IMG/VR virus record: IMGVR_UViG_2698536369_000013
Location: 1 to 7,991 of that record
Strand: one strand, 5' to 3'
Length of the DNA: 7,991 nucleotides
From: a virus
Lineage: Duplodnaviria; Heunggongvirae; Uroviricota; Caudoviricetes
The notes under the pieces are model-generated. The model had not been told where the DNA came from. It did not search any database and was given only the letters and a program-made list of their open reading frames with translations. Within the stretch, counting starts at the first letter, position 1. Every line of letters starts with the position of its first letter. The position numbers and the translations under genes were made by a program. Shown here piece after piece: positions 3,249-7,756 of the stretch.

Positions 3249-3620
3249 ATTCTGAACCCTAAAAAAAGAAACACGGACACTGATAATGCCCGTGTGGCAA
3301 TGCCATGTAAGTTAGCGATGAATATGGCGCAAAAAAAGCGCGGCCGTCGGATTAACGCCGCGGGACAAAGTCCATGAAGAATCATAAGTATCTGTCTCCT
3401 TCAGGAGACGAGTTGATATTACTAAGCTTTAAAAATGGTTTAAATCCTCAGATTAACCTTAATTTCAGGTAAGTCTTATTTCATTTCTTTGCGCCACGCC
3501 CGGCGCACATCAAAAACCACAGAGCCTTTCAGGGGTGAGCTTACGGGATGGTCAGTGTGACTTTCTCTGTGGGCTGGTCACCCCCGGGCGCAGGCTCACC
3601 CACTAAAAGGAAAAGTCACG

Positions 3621-4046
3621 ATGTTTGGTATTTTCAAAAAGAAAACCCGCAAGGCCATTACCGAAGTGAAGAAGATGGAGAACCGCGACGCAGTGGAGGC
3701 GACCGTCTGGGGCGCGTATTCCATTGCATATGCTGACGACACCTGTGACGCGAAAGAAGTCGCGGTACTGGAGAAAACCATTGCAGCACTTCCTGCCTTT
3801 GCGCCGTTCTCGGGTGAGATTGCACAAATGAGTGCAAATATCCGCGCCCGTTATGAAGCGTCACCGCGTTCTGCCAATGCCGAAGCCCTTCGTCAGCTGG
3901 CTGATGTTGCCGGTACTGATGATGCAGTTAACGTGCTGTGTCTGTGTCTGGATATTGCTGACCAGGACGGCATCGGTCCTGATGAAGAAGTGCAGCTCAA
4001 GAAAATTGCACAGGCGTTGCAGTTGCCGCTGGAGCAGTACCTGTGA
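3621..4046 (+). CDS. TerB-like (tellurite-resistance TerB family) protein, 141 aa
   Basis: ATG 3621 with AAGGA about 9 nt upstream; stop TGA 4044-4046. N-terminus MFGIFKKK resembles the TerB N-terminus, and two motifs of the form A-x-A-D-[DG]...E...L (AYADDTCDAKEVAVLEKTIAAL and LDIADQDGIGPDEEVQLKKIAQAL) are characteristic of the TerB fold. Confidence 0.7.
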   Translation: MFGIFKKKTRKAITEVKKMENRDAVEATVWGAYSIAYADDTCDAKEVAVLEKTIAALPAFAPFSGEIAQMSANIRARYEASPRSANAEALRQLADVAGTDDAVNVLCLCLDIADQDGIGPDEEVQLKKIAQALQLPLEQYL

Positions 4047-4195
4047 AAAGTGCGCGCCTTGTGCTGGCTGCCATCCTGCTGTTTCTGGTAGTGGTGGTGG
4101 ATTTCACCGGACGGCTGATGTCGGTGCTGGCAGATGGTGTGCTGGTGGCGATGGCGCTGGTCGTGCTCCGGCCTTTACTGCGTAAATCTGAATAA
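4043..4195 (+). CDS. Small hydrophobic protein (50 aa, about 2 predicted TM helices), GTG start overlapping the TerB-like stop
   Basis: GTG at 4043 overlaps the TGA of the upstream gene (ctGTGAaa). Translation MKSARLVLAAILLFLVVVVDFTGRLMSVLADGVLVAMALVVLRPLLRKSE, stop TAA 4193-4195. Too short for the ORF track; found by manual translation. Followed by two hairpins. Confidence 0.4.
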   Translation: MKSARLVLAAILLFLVVVVDFTGRLMSVLADGVLVAMALVVLRPLLRKSE

Positions 4196-4242
4196 CACCA
4201 CACAAAAGGCATCTGCGGGTGCCTTTGATGGGGTGTTTTTAT

Positions 4243-4264
4243 GGGCCGTTGGTGGCCCTTTTTT
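4243..4264 (+). terminator. Rho-independent terminator between the TerB-like insert and the lysis cassette
   Basis: GGGCC (4243-4247) / GGCCC (4254-4258) stem, 6-nt loop, then T6 (4259-4264). Preceded by a second hairpin AAAGGCA...TGCCTTT at 4205-4225. Confidence 0.55.
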
Positions 4265-4282
4265 ATTTACAGGAGAAAAAGT

Positions 4283-4675
4283 ATGTCTGAACCCTTATCC
4301 GGTTCCGGCACGGCTGCGGCGCTCGGCGGGGCGACGGTATTCGGGCTGTTTACCGGAACGGATTTCGGGATTGTGTTTGGTGCGTTCGCCGGGGCGTTGT
4401 TTGTGGCAACGATGCCGCAGAAGATTTCAGCCTGGCGTGTGGCGGCACATTTTCTGGTGTCGTTCATTGTTGGTGTACTGGGGGCGCGTGTACTGTCAGC
4501 CTGGATTGCATCAAAAACAGGTTATGACGGTACATCTGCGGATGCACTGTGTGCGGTGCTGGTGGCGGTGGTGTCGGTGAAGATTCTGTCGTTCATCCAC
4601 CAGCAGGATATCGCATCACTGGTGTCCGGCCTGTTCTCGCGCCTGCGGGGCGGAGGAGGCGGCAATGTTAAGTAA
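4283..4675 (+). CDS. Putative holin / lysis membrane protein (130 aa, 3-4 predicted TM segments, Gly-rich)
   Basis: Strong SD AGGAG (4271-4275) then ATG 4283; stop TAA 4673-4675. Hydrophobic helices with GxxxG-like spacing and a charged C-terminal tail. Sits immediately upstream of the endolysin and is translationally coupled to the next gene. Confidence 0.6.
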   Translation: MSEPLSGSGTAAALGGATVFGLFTGTDFGIVFGAFAGALFVATMPQKISAWRVAAHFLVSFIVGVLGARVLSAWIASKTGYDGTSADALCAVLVAVVSVKILSFIHQQDIASLVSGLFSRLRGGGGGNVK

Positions 4676-4940
4676 CCTTCCCGGATTGCTGAATGTGGCG
4701 TTATGCACGGTTATCGTGCTGACGCTCTTTTTTTATCGTCGCCGTGATTCCAGACATAAACCGCTGATGTCATGGCTGGCCTGGTTGCTGATGCTGCTGT
4801 ATGCCTTTGCGCCCCTCAGCTATCTGTGTGGTCGCCCGTTAGCAACGGGCTGGCTGGAAGTGTTTTTTAATTTGTTGTTCTGCGTGCTGGTAATACGCGC
4901 ACGCGGGAACGTCACAAAAATCTTTCCATTGTTGAGGTGA
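4665..4940 (+). CDS. Second small membrane protein of the lysis cassette (91 aa, 2-3 TM; holin or antiholin-like)
   Basis: ATG 4665 overlaps the upstream stop (ATGTTAAGTAA); stop TGA 4938-4940 lies 2 nt before the endolysin ATG. Strongly hydrophobic (LLNVALCTVIVLTLFFY..., WLAWLLMLLYAF...). Confidence 0.55.
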   Translation: MLSNLPGLLNVALCTVIVLTLFFYRRRDSRHKPLMSWLAWLLMLLYAFAPLSYLCGRPLATGWLEVFFNLLFCVLVIRARGNVTKIFPLLR

Positions 4941-4942
4941 AT

Positions 4943-5320
4943 ATGCCGGGTAAATTCAGATTCAGCCGTCGGAGCGAGAAAAATCTGGAGGGCGTCAAAC
5001 CACAACTGGTTGCTGTCGTTCGCCGTGCCCTTGAGCTGACGGAAGTTGATTTCGGTATTACGGAAGGCCTGCGCAGTAAGTATCGCCAGAAACAGCTGGT
5101 CGCGGAAGGGAAAAGTCAGACCATGAACAGCCGCCATCTGACCGGTGATGCGGTGGATGTTGTGGCCTACGTTGGCAACCAGGTGTCATGGGACTGGCCT
5201 CTGTACGAGAAAATCGCGCAGGCATTTAAGCAGGCTGCCGCAGAGCTGGGAACTGCCATCGAATGGGGCGGGGACTGGAAAACACTGAAAGACGGGCCTC
5301 ACTTCCAATTGAAACGCTGA
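4943..5320 (+). CDS. Endolysin, peptidase M15 family (L-alanyl-D-glutamate / D-Ala-D-Ala type zinc peptidase), 125 aa
   Basis: SD GAGGTG (4934-4939) then ATG 4943; stop TGA 5318-5320. Motifs typical of M15 phage endolysins: SRHLTGDAVDV (His/Asp metal ligands) and a C-terminal GGDW...DGPHFQL block. Confidence 0.8.
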   Translation: MPGKFRFSRRSEKNLEGVKPQLVAVVRRALELTEVDFGITEGLRSKYRQKQLVAEGKSQTMNSRHLTGDAVDVVAYVGNQVSWDWPLYEKIAQAFKQAAAELGTAIEWGGDWKTLKDGPHFQLKR

Positions 5321-5334
5321 TAGCCGGGCGAGTT

Positions 5335-5517
5335 ATGAGCCGAAAACACTGGACACACAGAATGCCGCGAGCGGCGGCAAAATGGGCACTGGTAGCGATA
5401 CTGGTGCCTTTTTTATTGGTGGGGTGCGTCAGCCTGGATAAGGCGCGCCAGCTTTTCGATACGGCTTCTCAGGTCTGTGAAATTGTCGACGGTGTTCGAC
5501 AGTGTCTGCAGAGCTGA
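5335..5517 (+). CDS. Small lipoprotein (60 aa; possible o-spanin-like or accessory lysis lipoprotein)
   Basis: Signal peptide with lipobox: KWALVAILVPFLLVGC (Cys after LVG). Lies immediately after the endolysin. Start at ATG 5335 or 5362 is ambiguous; no C-terminal TM segment; not Pro-rich like classical Rz1. Confidence 0.5.
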   Translation: MSRKHWTHRMPRAAAKWALVAILVPFLLVGCVSLDKARQLFDTASQVCEIVDGVRQCLQS

Positions 5518-5690
5518 TCGCCCGTAAGAGCAGAATATTTCGCTGAAAAATGAAGGATGCGCCAGCGTCCGGAAGGCATGAAATTCTGCTGTGTGTGCCA
5601 ATTTGTCTTATACATTCTGAATCTTGCCGAATCAGGACGAACTTTGAACAACAGACCGGGCGGCAAGGGGCATTTTTATCCGGAGGGGAT

Positions 5691-5915
5691 ATGAAGAGAT
5701 TACTGGTAACCGTAAAGCCCTTTAACGGAACGATTCCATTCAGGGTTTTGCAGCGTGGACGTGTTCTGGTTAAGGATATCTTCAGTGGTAAATGCACGGA
5801 GTGTTATTCCCGGACATATGAAGTGGATGCCACGGATGAAGAAATTTCTGTTGAATGTGATCTGAACGCAAATATGGCGGGGATTGTAACGGCCACGTTG
5901 TTGCCTGTTTCATGA
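5691..5915 (+). CDS. Hypothetical small protein (74 aa) with a CxxC motif
   Basis: Strong SD GGAGGGG (5682-5688) then ATG 5691; stop TGA 5913-5915. Contains KCTEC plus a third Cys (VEC). The ORF track's longer form (from 5550) has no SD, so the 5691 start is preferred. Confidence 0.55.
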   Translation: MKRLLVTVKPFNGTIPFRVLQRGRVLVKDIFSGKCTECYSRTYEVDATDEEISVECDLNANMAGIVTATLLPVS

Positions 5916-5955
5916 ATGACATAGAATGTCTCTGGGTACCCAAAAGGAGAACACT

Positions 5956-6171
5956 ATGTTTGTAGAAAATAACCTGAAGGCTGATCCTGATAATCAGGGA
6001 TGGGTTCTTGGTTGGGCTGTAGTACGTGACAAACCCTGGCATCTGGTCGGCATTTATGCAACGGAGGATGGCGCAAAGTCTAAACGCTCTGAATTGAATG
6101 GGGAGTATGAAGTTCGTTATGGTTCCCATCGTTTAGGTAGTGATGATTTTATGTCTGTCGGACTTAGCTAA
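5956..6171 (+). CDS. Hypothetical small protein (71 aa)
   Basis: SD AGGAG (5944-5948) then ATG 5956; stop TAA 6169-6171. Lies 40 nt downstream of the previous gene and is followed by a strong terminator, so probably a two-gene unit. Confidence 0.55.
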   Translation: MFVENNLKADPDNQGWVLGWAVVRDKPWHLVGIYATEDGAKSKRSELNGEYEVRYGSHRLGSDDFMSVGLS

Positions 6172-6192
6172 CTGGCTGTGATGCCTGTTTGT

Positions 6193-6217
6193 AGCCCCGC
6201 AAATGCGGGGCTTTTTT
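6193..6217 (+). terminator. Strong rho-independent terminator
   Basis: AGCCCCGC (6193-6200) / GCGGGGC (6205-6211) GC-rich stem, 4-nt loop AAAT, then T6 (6212-6217). Confidence 0.75.
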
Positions 6218-6227
6218 ATATCTGGAG

Positions 6228-6626
6228 ATGATGATGGAAAAAACAGAAAATAAACCGATTTTAGTTGGTGTCGCGTCTATTCCGTTTAAGTTTGAACTGT
6301 CACAACTGGTGGAAGTACGCATCAGTGATGAATGGGGTGAGGTTAAAGCTCGCGCGCAGTATGCGGATGGCGAAAACCAGTACTTGATCCACTACAAGGC
6401 TGCTGATGGTCGCGCCACAACGGCGTGGTTTGGTGAGTCAATGCTGGAAGCAACAGAAGATGATCGCCATCCGGGCTGTCCGGTATTTGCCGGTATGAAA
6501 TTACCGGAAGGTGCAGTTGAACTGCAGCCGGGTGAGGTGTTCGTAATGACAGACATCATTGATGGTAAACCGCAGTATTCGCGTATTGAAATGAATAGTA
6601 AGAGTGCTCGCCTGATTCGTGAGTAA
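6228..6626 (+). CDS. Hypothetical protein (about 130 aa), function unknown
   Basis: GGAG (6224-6227) followed by three tandem ATGs (6228, 6231, 6234), so the exact start is ambiguous. Stop TAA 6624-6626. Clean ORF with no overlapping competitor; no motif I recognise. Confidence 0.65.
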   Translation: MMMEKTENKPILVGVASIPFKFELSQLVEVRISDEWGEVKARAQYADGENQYLIHYKAADGRATTAWFGESMLEATEDDRHPGCPVFAGMKLPEGAVELQPGEVFVMTDIIDGKPQYSRIEMNSKSARLIRE

Positions 6627-6630
6627 CAGG

Positions 6631-6669
6631 CATTACAGCAGCCCTTCACTCTAAGGGGTTGCTGTAATG
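6631..6669. repeat. Long inverted repeat / stem-loop (14-bp stem, 10-nt loop) right after the 6228-6626 gene
   Basis: CATTACAGCAGCCC (6631-6644) pairs with GGGGTTGCTGTAATG (6655-6669) with one G-U. No downstream T-tract, so not a classical intrinsic terminator. Confidence 0.6.
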
Positions 6670-6990
6670 TGAGAAATAAAAAACCGGCCACAGGGAGCAG
6701 CTACACAGAACCGGCCGGCGAAGACCGCCAATACCACCCATGCTTTGATGCAACATACTAATGACAATAGCCGCTATTGATGTAAATGCAATGTTATGCA
6801 TCGACGAAAATAAAAAACCGGCAGGGGAAATCCATTGAAGATTTGCCGGTGGCAAAAGAGGGCCATGTTTTTAACCTTAGTCGCAGAGTTACGGAGTGCA
6901 ACTACGAATGCTGCCGGTATATGGCTGAATGGCGTTTCAATGATGTACGTCATCTTATCTGTAAACGTTAATGACAAACGCTCTCATTTG

Positions 6991-7186
6991 TGCGGGTCCT
7001 TCCGGTGGGGTGGCCTGCCACGGGGCGGAAGGCGCGCGGGTTTTCGCTATTTATGAAAATTTTCCGGGGAAAATCATGTCGGTACTTCTCGAACATAACT
7101 ATTTGTTTTTTCTAATATCGAATCCGTAAAAGGTCCGACATGAAAACGCCTAAAAAAGTCATTTTCGGGCACTTTCATGTCGGACC
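6991..7186. other. cos: Phage cohesive-end site (cosQ-cosN-cosB) of a lambda-like packaging system
   Basis: About 190 bp upstream of Nu1, as in lambda. CGGGTCCTTCCGGTG (6993-7007) resembles lambda cosQ. Putative cosN is GGGCGGAAGGCG (7023-7034) against lambda GGGCGGCGACCT. The block CGCGGGTTTTCGCTATTTATGAAAATTTTCCGG (7035-7067) matches the start of lambda cosB as I recall it. Three R-like repeats follow. Confidence 0.75.
7073..7186. repeat. Three copies of a CATGTCGG-core repeat in + / - / + orientation (candidate terminase small-subunit binding sites)
   Basis: ATCATGTCGGTAC (7073-7085, +), GGTCCGACATGAAA (7132-7145, reverse orientation), TTTCATGTCGGACC (7173-7186, +). Copies 2 and 3 form a perfect 14-bp inverted repeat. 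An AT-rich spacer (7086-7131) between copies 1 and 2 sits where lambda has its IHF site. Confidence 0.6.
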
Positions 7187-7210
7187 CTGTGTTTGTTGTG
7201 AGACTGTTTC

Positions 7211-7756
7211 ATGAAGGTTAATAAAAAGAAGCTTGCCGAAATTTTCAACGTGGATCCGCGAACGATTGAACGCTGGCAGTCTCAGGGACTCCCTTGCGTC
7301 TCCGGAGGTGGTAAGGGCGTTGAATCTGTATTTGATACCTCCATGGCAATTCAGTGGTATGCGCAGAGGGAGGCTGATATCGAAAATGAAAAACTCCGTA
7401 AAGAGGTTGAGGATTACAGGGCTGCCAGTGAGGCAGATCTCCAGCCTGGGACTATTGAGTACGAACGCCATCGACTTACGCGTGCGCAGGCCGACGCACA
7501 GGAGCTGAAGAATGCCAGAGACTCCGCAGAAGTGGTGGAAACCGCATTCTGTACTTTCGTGCTGTCACGGATCGCAGGTGAAATTGCCAGTATTCTTGAC
7601 GGGATCCCTCTCTCGGTACAGCGGCGTTTTCCGGAACTGGAAAACCGACATGTTGATTTCCTGAAACGGGATATCATCAAAGCCATGAACAAAGCAGCCG
7701 CGCTGGATGAACTGATACCGGGGTTGCTGAGTGAATATATCGAACAGTCAGGTTAA
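7211..7756 (+). CDS. nu1: Terminase small subunit, lambda Nu1-like (181 aa)
   Basis: ATG 7211, stop TAA 7754-7756. From about residue 70 onward the protein is essentially identical to lambda Nu1 as I recall it ([42 protein letters not shown]...LSEYIEQSG). The N-terminal winged-HTH region ([28 protein letters not shown]...) is clearly related but diverged. Confidence 0.95.

Follow-up and report, generated by a model that had tools for sequence, protein, structure and literature searches.

A conserved small lipoprotein gene of i-spanin-less prophage lysis cassettes is a candidate for the outer-membrane step of lysis

The window analysed here, a stretch of 7,991 nucleotides of Caudoviricetes DNA, carries four intact, tightly packed ORFs on the plus strand at 4283-5517: two holin-family genes (hol8 and hol37), an M15 endolysin gene and a gene for a 60-aa lipoprotein. 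The 60-aa ORF is a real, conserved gene that is under purifying selection and linked to the lysis genes. Our best explanation, to which we give about an even chance, is that it belongs integrally to the lysis module, as a late gene, and serves the outer-membrane step without a phage i-spanin. We infer for its product an outer-membrane localisation, oligomerisation and a role in outer-membrane disruption. Phages that carry this cassette and have no i-spanin may breach the outer membrane by an undescribed route.

The cassette is placed in the prophage late region, with the Q/accessory-gene region on one side and the terminase gene on the other. A terminator-like hairpin (GGGCCGTTGGTGGCCC followed by a T-run; 4243..4268, plus strand) lies between the TerB/DUF3927 accessory genes and hol8 (4283..4675, plus strand; 130 aa), which is preceded by an AGGAG ribosome-binding site. 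The start of hol8 at 4283 is the RefSeq start in a 99.9% identical prophage, where the gene is annotated 'putative holin', and since an in-frame ATG further upstream, at 4241, is overlapped by the hairpin, 4283 is supported as the real start. The ATG of hol37 (4665..4940, plus strand; 91 aa) lies within hol8, the two genes overlapping by 11 nt. The endolysin gene (4943..5320, plus strand; 125 aa) begins with an ATG 2 nt past the hol37 stop, an alternative GTG at 4937 overlapping the same stop, and a 14-nt gap separates its own stop from the lipoprotein gene (5335..5517, plus strand).

The preliminary description of this DNA placed two membrane proteins of 130 aa and 91 aa before an M15 endolysin. 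Profile searches agreed with this and assigned both proteins to holin families rather than non-lysis families. The hol8 product matched Pfam PF16931 (Phage_holin_8) at E 6e-24 (84.9 bits, gathering cut-off 26.4) and PHROG 198 'holin' at E 3e-42, and hydropathy indicated at least three hydrophobic segments. The hol37 product, with three TM segments by hydropathy, matched Pfam PF05449 (Phage_holin_3_7) at E 6e-22 (77.9 bits, gathering cut-off 25.4) and PHROG 217 'holin' at E 1.5e-38. By these matches, their multiple TM segments and their position upstream of the endolysin gene, both are predicted holin-family proteins. The endolysin matched Pfam Peptidase_M15_4 (E 9e-13, above the gathering score), PHROG 465 'endolysin' (E 3e-75) and, in the PDB, ChiX (5opz, E 6e-43) and the T5 endolysin (2mxz, E 2e-23). 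A zinc motif, H65-x6-D72 ... H120, can be read from its sequence and no TM segment was predicted in it; by homology it is a soluble M15 zinc L-alanyl-D-glutamate endopeptidase. The Serratia ChiWXYZ (type 10 secretion) system also combines a holin with an M15 endopeptidase, and the endolysin here is close to ChiX, but that system encodes the spanins ChiY and ChiZ (PMC13284979), whereas the present cassette lies in a prophage late region.

The signal peptide of the lipoprotein comprises codons 1-30 and the mature part is 30 aa long, with a net charge of -1. The lipobox L28-V-G-C31 lies at 5416-5427, and residue +2 is Val32 rather than Asp, so the protein would go to the outer membrane and reside in its inner leaflet. 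The single hydrophobic segment, residues 12-37, is that of the signal peptide. Hydropathy and the proline-free mature part bear out the earlier picture of a 60-aa lipoprotein with an LVGC lipobox, no C-terminal TM segment and no proline-rich character. Across 25 sequences G30, C31 and C48 (Cys48 at 5476-5478) do not vary, and all members have another Cys 9-10 residues past C48; it is Cys57 (5503-5505) in the window and position 58 in the Enterobacter-type subfamily. The AlphaFold model consists of one helix, residues 12-59, at a mean pLDDT of 73.5. The lipoprotein matched PHROG 7528 (function unknown) at E 7e-37 as well as PHROG 3641, likewise of 'unknown function'. No Pfam match was found at E up to 10 and no NCBIfam match, and a search of the mature 30-aa part against 1.84 billion representatives returned just family members and one likely chance match. 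By Pfam, PHROG, hhalign and the large-scale search, the protein resembled no characterised family, spanins and colicin lysis proteins included. Homology to Braun's lipoprotein was considered (hhalign probability 42%) and rejected: the match was limited to the signal peptide and the first 10 residues, and is no evidence of homology.

The lipoprotein ORF is intact in more than 80 loci, and intact ORFs persist down to 55% identity over seven genera. The dN/dS was 0.29 overall and 0.23 in the mature part, and synonymous first-position changes (CGA/AGA Arg, TTG/CTG Leu) were seen. A -1 frameshift site, T TTT TTA, was dropped as a candidate since it is not kept in frame in Citrobacter. Pseudogenised or fused copies occur in GER2, P0135, P0137 and P0140; the GER2 homologue, from an Stx phage equipped with S, R and Rz, is a pseudogene interrupted by three in-frame stops, and its decay in a phage with Rz speaks for a lysis role. 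Pseudogenised and fused copies would also be expected if the gene were an evolutionary relic, an orphan o-spanin that became functionless after loss of its i-spanin. The purifying selection on the gene and its intact ORFs in diverged relatives argue against a relic, as does the lack of detectable similarity to the o-spanin of mEp390, which occupies the same slot behind a related holin pair (hhalign probability 2%). We find this reading scarcely credible.

The signal peptide is strikingly conserved, no less so than the mature part, with pN of 0.05 in the h-region, 0.24 in the n-region and 0.30 in the mature part. Residues H5, H8, R9, P11 and R12 of the cytoplasmic N-tail are conserved at the protein level, and the n-region motif HWTHRxPR is retained in P0139 despite a replaced h-region. 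The conserved N-tail suggests that the precursor or the signal peptide is functional itself. Both the pN values and the retained motif would fit a lysis regulator: the product, possibly as its cleaved signal peptide retained in the inner membrane, would set the timing of the holins or modulate the endolysin instead of attacking the outer membrane. We judge a regulator very improbable, because the lipoprotein occurs with unrelated holin families and because the invariant lipobox and conserved cysteines indicate that the mature lipopeptide is also under selection.

To place the gene in context, we surveyed its distribution and neighbourhood. It is present in 306 of 5426 complete E. coli genomes (~5.6%) and in 267 viral contigs, and its prophage hosts besides E. 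coli are Salmonella, Citrobacter, Enterobacter, Yersinia, Cronobacter and Lelliottia (seven genera in total). Carriers include Stx2e, Stx2k and LT-II toxin phages. The gene comes directly after the endolysin gene, at a gap of -4 to +14 nt over all the combinations seen. In the window and 39 further loci it follows the endolysin of a hol8 + hol37 + M15 cassette. It also follows the endolysin in hol8 + hol37 + GH108 cassettes (Yersinia and a Mu-like phage), in Phage_holin_3_1 + M15 cassettes (Enterobacter and Citrobacter) and, in Lelliottia, behind a GH108 endolysin with a distinct 117-aa membrane protein that is a putative holin. Besides its seven genera, the gene is thus found with two types of endolysin, with holins of at least three types and in phages of three body plans, exemplified by phiP27 (a myovirus), phiSTEC1575-Stx2k (a lambda-like siphovirus) and L098 (Mu-like). 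The four-gene arrangement is not due to chance.

Among the viral-contig loci, small-terminase identity ranged from 33 to 100% against a lipoprotein identity of at least 92%. The lipoprotein gene has a GC content of 54.6% and a GC3 of 57%, the lysis genes 50-58% and 61-63%, and the genes downstream of the lipoprotein gene 45-48% and 38-45%. A 3' flank of ~70-80 nt (5518..5597, plus strand) moves together with the gene before inter-locus homology breaks: when 5518-5690 was compared with 89 loci by blastn, most matches ended at query position 71-80. This flank folded no better than shuffled sequences (z -1.26). The lipoprotein gene moves with lysis genes and not with virion genes.

An intrinsic-terminator-like RNA hairpin (5384..5417, plus strand), with an 11-bp stem, a GCGA loop and a U-tract, lies within codons 17-27 of the lipoprotein gene. 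Its folding energy is -21.3 kcal/mol on the plus strand (z -3.85) and -10 on the minus strand. Over 25 distinct variants 98.9% of cells were paired, and the synonymous rate was 0.39 in the hairpin region compared to 1.0-1.7 in the flanks. The structure is conserved; its covariation values were reached by 55-65 of 500 shuffles. The element is missing from the Mu-like phage member. A simple consensus scan for sigma-70-like promoters found none in 3400-7300, where 3.5 were expected. The presence of the hairpin within lambdoid versions suggests that only Q-modified, terminator-resistant RNA polymerase transcribes the gene to its end, and hence, in these versions, only in the lytic cycle.

The interval from the endolysin gene to the terminase gene is a hot spot where variable genes collect, namely LT-II toxin genes, KilA-N/Bro genes and small ORFs. 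This location, like the lack of similarity to spanins, would suit an accessory or conversion gene that is a passenger at the end of the lysis operon and has another envelope role, for example in excluding superinfecting phages, masking receptors on debris or conferring serum resistance. Lambda Bor, Cor and T5 Llp are small prophage or phage lipoproteins with non-lysis roles, and lambda bor also adjoins lysis genes. The present gene differs from these in that it lies on the same strand as the endolysin gene, tightly spaced or overlapping with it, and has no promoter signal of its own in the simple scan. Its lysis-gene G+C and internal terminator point the same way, and a search suggested by the preliminary description found no match in Pfam or NCBIfam, neither to Bor or Cor nor to another family. 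The gene is also unlinked to receptor-binding genes, as its lysis linkage across myovirus, siphovirus and Mu-like modules means that the lipoprotein tracks no receptor-binding protein. We consider an accessory role unlikely, while granting it some weight.

To search for an i-spanin partner, we scanned for ORFs encoding an N-terminal TM segment and a soluble domain. None of at least 40 aa was found on either strand of 4000-7250 in the window, and none was found across the complete phiP27 genome or, in 89 loci, from -4 to +3 kb around the lipoprotein gene; the scans returned just spurious off-frame ORFs and StxB. The initial impression that no Rz-like gene is visible in any frame therefore held well beyond the window. 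Our literature search found no paper on an o-spanin without an i-spanin or on these holin families.

The sole published spanin call for this cassette type is that of Kongari 2018, which lists the phiP27 homologue as an o-spanin of a singleton family in a 'separated' pair (PMC6139136). That census used a 51-aa form of the phiP27 o-spanin (PMC6139136), whereas the true start is M1, giving 60 aa. We located the published i-spanin at 20348-20542 of phiP27, a 64-aa TTG-start ORF. It is antisense to a conserved 90-aa gene (PHROG 36812, E 5e-20) and itself has no PHROG match, and a counterpart ORF is missing in a diverged homologous segment (L029). The segment occurs in just 3 of 78 loci. Since this TTG-start ORF is antisense to a conserved gene and missing from the window, the i-spanin call is probably an artefact. 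Extra small membrane ORFs lie between the endolysin and lipoprotein genes in 33 of 78 related loci, so not every locus has the minimal arrangement of the window. We rejected the 57/60-aa and 44-aa membrane ORFs of relatives as partners: they are tail-anchored with an N-in topology, and the window and 45 of 78 loci do not have them.

The lipoprotein could still be a true o-spanin with an unrecognised partner, which might be its own uncleaved precursor, a host protein, a holin-family protein or the 57/60-aa ORFs of relatives. The o-spanin class given to phiP27 by Kongari 2018 and the conserved cytoplasmic N-tail would agree with this, and the two periplasmic cysteines fit the intermolecular disulfides reported for nearly all two-component spanins (PMC6139136). 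At the sequence level, the lipobox without Asp at +2 is another o-spanin feature, but a cognate i-spanin gene and membership in a described spanin family were not found. The published partner is antisense, rare and without a PHROG match, the holins vary between cassettes, leaving no fixed holin partner, and the small ORFs have the tail-anchored N-in topology noted above and do not occur in the window. In addition, two 30-aa periplasmic parts are too short to span the periplasm. We hold an unrecognised spanin pair to be quite unlikely.

The preliminary description contrasted the cassette with classical lambdoid ones. That contrast needs a qualifier, as the holin pair is widespread and ordinary spanins follow it in more distant phages. 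In the three that we sampled, mEp390, HK639 and F1055, whose holin pair is ~40% identical, a canonical i/o-spanin pair stands directly after the endolysin gene. Judged by gene order, the slot of the lipoprotein gene is the spanin slot of related cassettes.

Two readings had been left open: either outer-membrane disruption works differently here, or the lipoprotein gene is an inserted gene with another role. The former seems the likelier, given a position kept amid holin, endolysin and virion swaps, together with the lysis-like G+C and the lack of a promoter-like site of its own. In our preferred explanation, the two holin-family proteins would release the soluble M15 endolysin, and removal of the outer-membrane barrier would follow as the third step. 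The precursor would be exported, lipidated at Cys31 and cleaved. The mature part would then form an amphipathic helix of ~28 residues in the outer membrane, with two conserved cysteines that probably make disulfide-linked oligomers, and would remove the outer-membrane barrier without a phage-encoded inner-membrane spanin subunit. A 30-residue helix, ~4.5 nm long, is too short to reach across the periplasm, which makes spanin-type membrane fusion implausible. Since phages do not need spanins in certain laboratory settings, it is also conceivable that the phages studied here have no outer-membrane step at all and that the lipoprotein has a different function.

Two-component spanins of the lambda Rz/Rz1 type share the slot after the endolysin, a small outer-membrane-type lipoprotein and periplasmic cysteines, but the lipoprotein here has no i-spanin partner, its mature part is 30 aa, helical and proline-free, and it matched no spanin family in Pfam or PHROG. 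The unimolecular spanin T1 gp11 is likewise a single gene in the spanin slot with an N-terminal lipoprotein signal, but the present protein does not end in a TM segment and is much too short to span the periplasm. The phiKT gp28 'disruptin' provides a precedent, in that a spanin-less phage uses one small amphipathic peptide for the outer-membrane step (bioRxiv 10.1101/515445); gp28 is by description a cationic antimicrobial peptide and non-lipoprotein, in contrast to the lipobox-bearing, slightly anionic protein here. Colicin lysis proteins, or BRPs (Lysis_col; PMC9517006), permeabilise the envelope without an inner-membrane bridge. They too have precursors of 45-60 aa, and the 30-aa mature part falls within their mature size of ~27-35 aa. 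As proposed for the lipoprotein here, they are encoded by the last gene of a damage-induced, terminator-gated killing operon, and their signal peptide has an apparent function of its own, as conservation suggests here; the pCloDF13 BRP has a stable signal peptide (van der Wal 1994/1995, as cited in PMC5727409). The lipoprotein differs in showing no sequence similarity to them and in being phage-borne rather than plasmid-borne.

A more specific form of our explanation, which we advance tentatively as possible rather than probable, is a stand-alone lipopeptide that resembles colicin lysis proteins and would be a third kind of outer-membrane factor after spanins and the disruptin. Working from the inner leaflet, the disulfide-linked mature helix would destabilise the outer membrane, possibly via host phospholipase A, and the unusually conserved signal peptide would act in the inner membrane as another active product. 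The terminator embedded in the gene of lambdoid phages would restrict synthesis to Q-antiterminated transcription.

These results address the open question of how phages without recognisable spanins cross the outer membrane. To our knowledge, phiKT gp28 is the only spanin alternative described. A census of 677 phages that infect Gram-negative hosts found no spanin in 91 of them and scored phiP27 as spanin-positive (PMC6139136). If the phiP27 spanin call is wrong, a whole family is hidden in the 'solved' column. As the cassette occurs in Stx2e, Stx2k and LT-II toxin phages, the lysis step also governs toxin release. If the outer-membrane role is true, the lipoprotein would represent a new class of lysis protein and a small outer-membrane-active lipopeptide.

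The preliminary description proposed a lysis cassette at 4283-5517 consisting of two tandem membrane proteins, an M15 endolysin and a lone lipoprotein, with no recognisable i-spanin (inner-membrane spanin subunit, Rz type), and all of these assignments were borne out. All four ORFs are uninterrupted and closely spaced on the + strand. The first two genes, hol8 (4283-4675) and hol37 (4665-4940, starting 11 nt within hol8), encode holin-type proteins of 130 aa and 91 aa with about three hydrophobic segments each, which match Pfam Phage_holin_8 and Phage_holin_3_7, respectively, far over the curated cut-offs and also match PHROG 'holin' entries. The endolysin gene (4943-5320) begins 2 nt beyond the hol37 stop; its product, a soluble M15 enzyme with an H-x6-D ... 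H zinc motif, closely resembles Serratia ChiX (E 6e-43) and also shares homology with the T5 L-alanyl-D-glutamate peptidase (E 2e-23). All three proteins are typical representatives of established families. The fourth gene (5335-5517, 14 nt beyond the endolysin stop) encodes a 60-aa lipoprotein (PHROG 7528) with a long basic N-tail and a single hydrophobic segment, without a second TM segment; the lipobox is LVGC, the residue at +2 is Val, and the mature part of 30 aa is proline-free. The lipoprotein has a canonical lipobox and an outer-membrane sorting residue. On both strands of 4000-7250, no i-spanin ORF of at least 40 aa was found; a phage-encoded i-spanin is absent.

The whole window is late-region DNA from a lambdoid prophage of E. 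coli, and its positions 4000-6200 share 99.9% identity with a prophage of strain GPEC79-13-647 and ~92% with the Stx2e phage phiP27. An IS3-family element (orfA/orfB, 55-1268, +), containing an ALIL frameshift pseudoknot (336-452; Rfam RF01497, 116 bits), lies 5' of a DNA methyltransferase gene (1560-2606, +). Two tRNA genes were detected with Rfam on the + strand (2788-2860 and 2867-2941), of which ARAGORN calls just the second (tRNA-Gly, anticodon tcc); phiP27 has ileZ/argO at this site. Between the tRNA and holin genes are a TerB-like gene (141 aa) and a DUF3927 gene (50 aa; two TM segments, PHROG 'TciB-like') at 3621-4195 (+), in the slot that holds stx2e in phiP27 and likewise stx2 in phiSTEC1575, followed by a terminator-like hairpin (4243-4258) just 5' of hol8. 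Downstream, three function-unassigned genes (+) sit between the lipoprotein gene and the small terminase gene (7211-7756, +). The second of these, an 81-aa ORF (5926-6171), is followed, within the late region, by a strong terminator-like hairpin (6193-6212, +) in which 7 of the 8 pairs are G-C and which leads into TTTTTATATC. In three related loci (L086 of phage Rac-SA53, L090 of Yersinia, and L011, at -2326..-1181 from the start of the lipoprotein gene), this type of cassette has acquired genes for heat-labile enterotoxin type II or a pertussis-like toxin, next to it or inside it, which shows that its flanks are a toxin-moron hot spot.

In all 89 loci, the lipoprotein gene is preceded by holin and endolysin genes that share its strand. 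Its partners vary: the endolysin is of the M15 or GH108 type, and the holins are hol8/hol37 or, in Enterobacter and Citrobacter, Phage_holin_3_1 (the lambda S-type family), while a different 117-aa membrane protein occupies the holin position in Lelliottia. The virion context also varies, from myovirus (phiP27) to lambda-like siphovirus (phiSTEC1575-Stx2k and the window's relatives) and Mu-like virion/regulatory modules. The lipoprotein start overlaps or abuts the endolysin stop in five lineages, its G+C and GC3 are like those of the lysis genes with the downstream genes AT-richer, and a simple consensus scan of 3400-7300 detected no sigma-70-like promoter. The lipoprotein gene belongs to the lysis module. 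An accessory protein with a non-lysis role is unlikely; a receptor-specific exclusion protein, for example, should track tail-fibre genes, whereas the lipoprotein gene stays with lysis genes across virion modules. Small tail-anchored membrane ORFs of 57/60 aa (PHROG 4493/1115), joined in 8 of 33 loci by a 44-aa ORF (PHROG 4906), lie between the endolysin and lipoprotein genes in 33 of 78 related loci and are missing from the window. They end 2-5 nt ahead of the lipoprotein ATG (-175..-2 in L006, L009, L024 and L043; -339..-5 in L035, L075, L062 and L033).

The sampled phages mEp390, HK639 and F1055, whose holin pair is only ~40% identical, each have an ordinary i-/o-spanin pair directly after the endolysin (o-spanin, outer-membrane subunit); the pair is of the embedded type in F1055 and of the overlapped type in the other two. 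By gene order, the lipoprotein slot is the spanin slot. In the Salmonella phage F1055 (L095 2696-3535), the endolysin 3' end and the i-spanin 5' end are tandemly duplicated, leaving a truncated 68-aa i-spanin N-terminus ahead of the complete 179-aa gene, in which the o-spanin is embedded. Among 75 phage records with a hol37 homologue, the lipoprotein gene is restricted to phiP27-like ones. Four phages carry it, three phiP27-like and the fourth an Stx phage, GER2. Besides S, R and an Rz-type gene, GER2 has a lipoprotein homologue 5' of its terminase gene (L088 2977-3180) that is a pseudogene with three in-frame stops and a still intact hairpin (described below).

A published spanin census (Kongari et al.) lists phiP27 as a 'separated' two-component system in which each subunit is a singleton family (i-spanin 20348-20542, o-spanin 20706-20861); no entry in the data set has a shorter combined periplasmic length than its 62 residues (PMC6139136 and its supplement). 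We found that the census o-spanin is the homologue of the window lipoprotein, started at an internal Met. Most relatives have Thr, Val, Ile or Gln in place of this Met, which puts the true start at M1 and the length at 60 aa. The phiP27 gene (L001 4202-4390) lacks annotation and is overlapped in another frame by the RefSeq CDS L32 (L001 4159-4314). The census i-spanin, an ORF of 64 aa beginning at TTG (L001 3877-4071), has no PHROG match itself and is wholly antisense to a 90-aa minus-strand ORF matching PHROG 36812 (E 5e-20). A diverged copy of the segment (L029) retains the minus-strand ORF without the plus-strand one. The segment occurs in just 3 of 78 related loci and is missing from the window, where only 14 nt separate endolysin and lipoprotein gene. 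The i-spanin call is probably an artefact. A scan of the whole phiP27 genome gave no other i-spanin candidate, neither phiP27 nor phiSTEC1575-Stx2k has an annotated spanin, and from -4 to +3 kb no i-spanin-like ORF was detected in any of the 89 lipoprotein loci.

The lipoprotein family is narrow, with 160-188 protein clusters, all from Enterobacteriaceae and Yersinia prophages and all named 'hypothetical' or 'lipoprotein'. A search of the mature 30 residues against 1.84 billion representatives gave no match beyond the family apart from one likely chance hit. For eight sequences from six genera, dN/dS was 0.29 for the whole ORF (0.23 for the mature part); synonymous sites were almost saturated, and first-position synonymous changes occurred (CGA/AGA, TTG/CTG). 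All members have a second Cys 9-10 residues beyond Cys48, which is itself invariant, as is the Gly-Cys of the lipobox. The lipoprotein gene is real and selected; that it is a relic is highly improbable. The AlphaFold model, of modest confidence (mean pLDDT 73.5), is one helix spanning residues 12-59, in agreement with the 83% helix given in the supplement of PMC6139136, and the mature part is amphipathic (hydrophobic moment 0.4-0.65, net charge -1). A second but incomplete copy of the gene lies 3' of the intact one in L016 (+792..+857 from the lipoprotein start, beginning exactly at the hairpin) and in the Mu-like phage locus L098 (3930-3960, containing a stop codon and repeating a portion of the mature region); these copies may be recombination scars.

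Conservation of the signal peptide equals or exceeds that of the mature part. Across 25 sequences, R3, H5, H8, R9, P11 and R12 show little or no variation, forming the motif M-x-R-x-H-W-T-H-R-x-P-R (codons 1-16, 5335-5382), while synonymous sites in this stretch vary freely (dS ~1.0). The motif is kept in the family member P0139 despite a replaced hydrophobic core. This pattern shows that selection acts on the protein sequence of the cytoplasmic N-tail. To our knowledge, ordinary lipoprotein signals show no such protein-level selection. The nearest precedent, among the references in PMC5727409, is the bacteriocin release protein of pCloDF13, whose signal peptide is stable and functional.

Codons 17-27, within the signal peptide, contain an intrinsic-terminator-like element on the + strand (5384-5417), in which an A-tract precedes an 11-bp stem capped by a GCGA tetraloop and a U-tract follows. 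RNA of the + strand has a folding energy of -21.3 kcal/mol (z -3.85); in the complementary strand, two G·U pairs are replaced by mismatches, so that folding is poor. The stretch is near-invariant in nucleotides across genera, including the GER2 pseudogene, and its synonymous rate is about one-third of that of the flanks. Across 25 distinct variants, 98.9% of cells are paired, and since changes are mostly to or from wobble pairs, formal covariation is weak. In the Mu-like phage homologue (L098 3501-3683), the hairpin and T-run are absent and the hydrophobic core of the peptide is different; its locus has a gene with a weak match to the Mor family but none for a Q antiterminator. This one natural contrast suggests that in Q-dependent phages only a terminator-resistant polymerase may complete the lipoprotein gene, which would then be completed only in lytic growth. 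A role of the gene product as lysis regulator is very unlikely.

We hold with moderate confidence that the lipoprotein serves the outer-membrane step of lysis. It would be lipidated, sorted to the outer membrane and form disulfide-linked helical oligomers that act there. An o-spanin working with a non-canonical partner is rather improbable. A 30-residue helix is too short to bridge the periplasm, making spanin-type fusion unlikely. The closest working analogy is with the colicin lysis proteins, likewise small lipoproteins, which cause quasi-lysis and activate outer-membrane phospholipase A (PMC9517006); a Pfam search found no sequence similarity between the two. Only tentatively do we propose that the lipoprotein represents a stand-alone lipoprotein class of outer-membrane lysis factor. 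What is new is a lone lipoprotein, conserved, selected and lysis-linked, in a spanin slot without an i-spanin. It has been masked in the literature by a probably wrong two-component call, and it also bears an unusual signal peptide and an intragenic terminator-like element.
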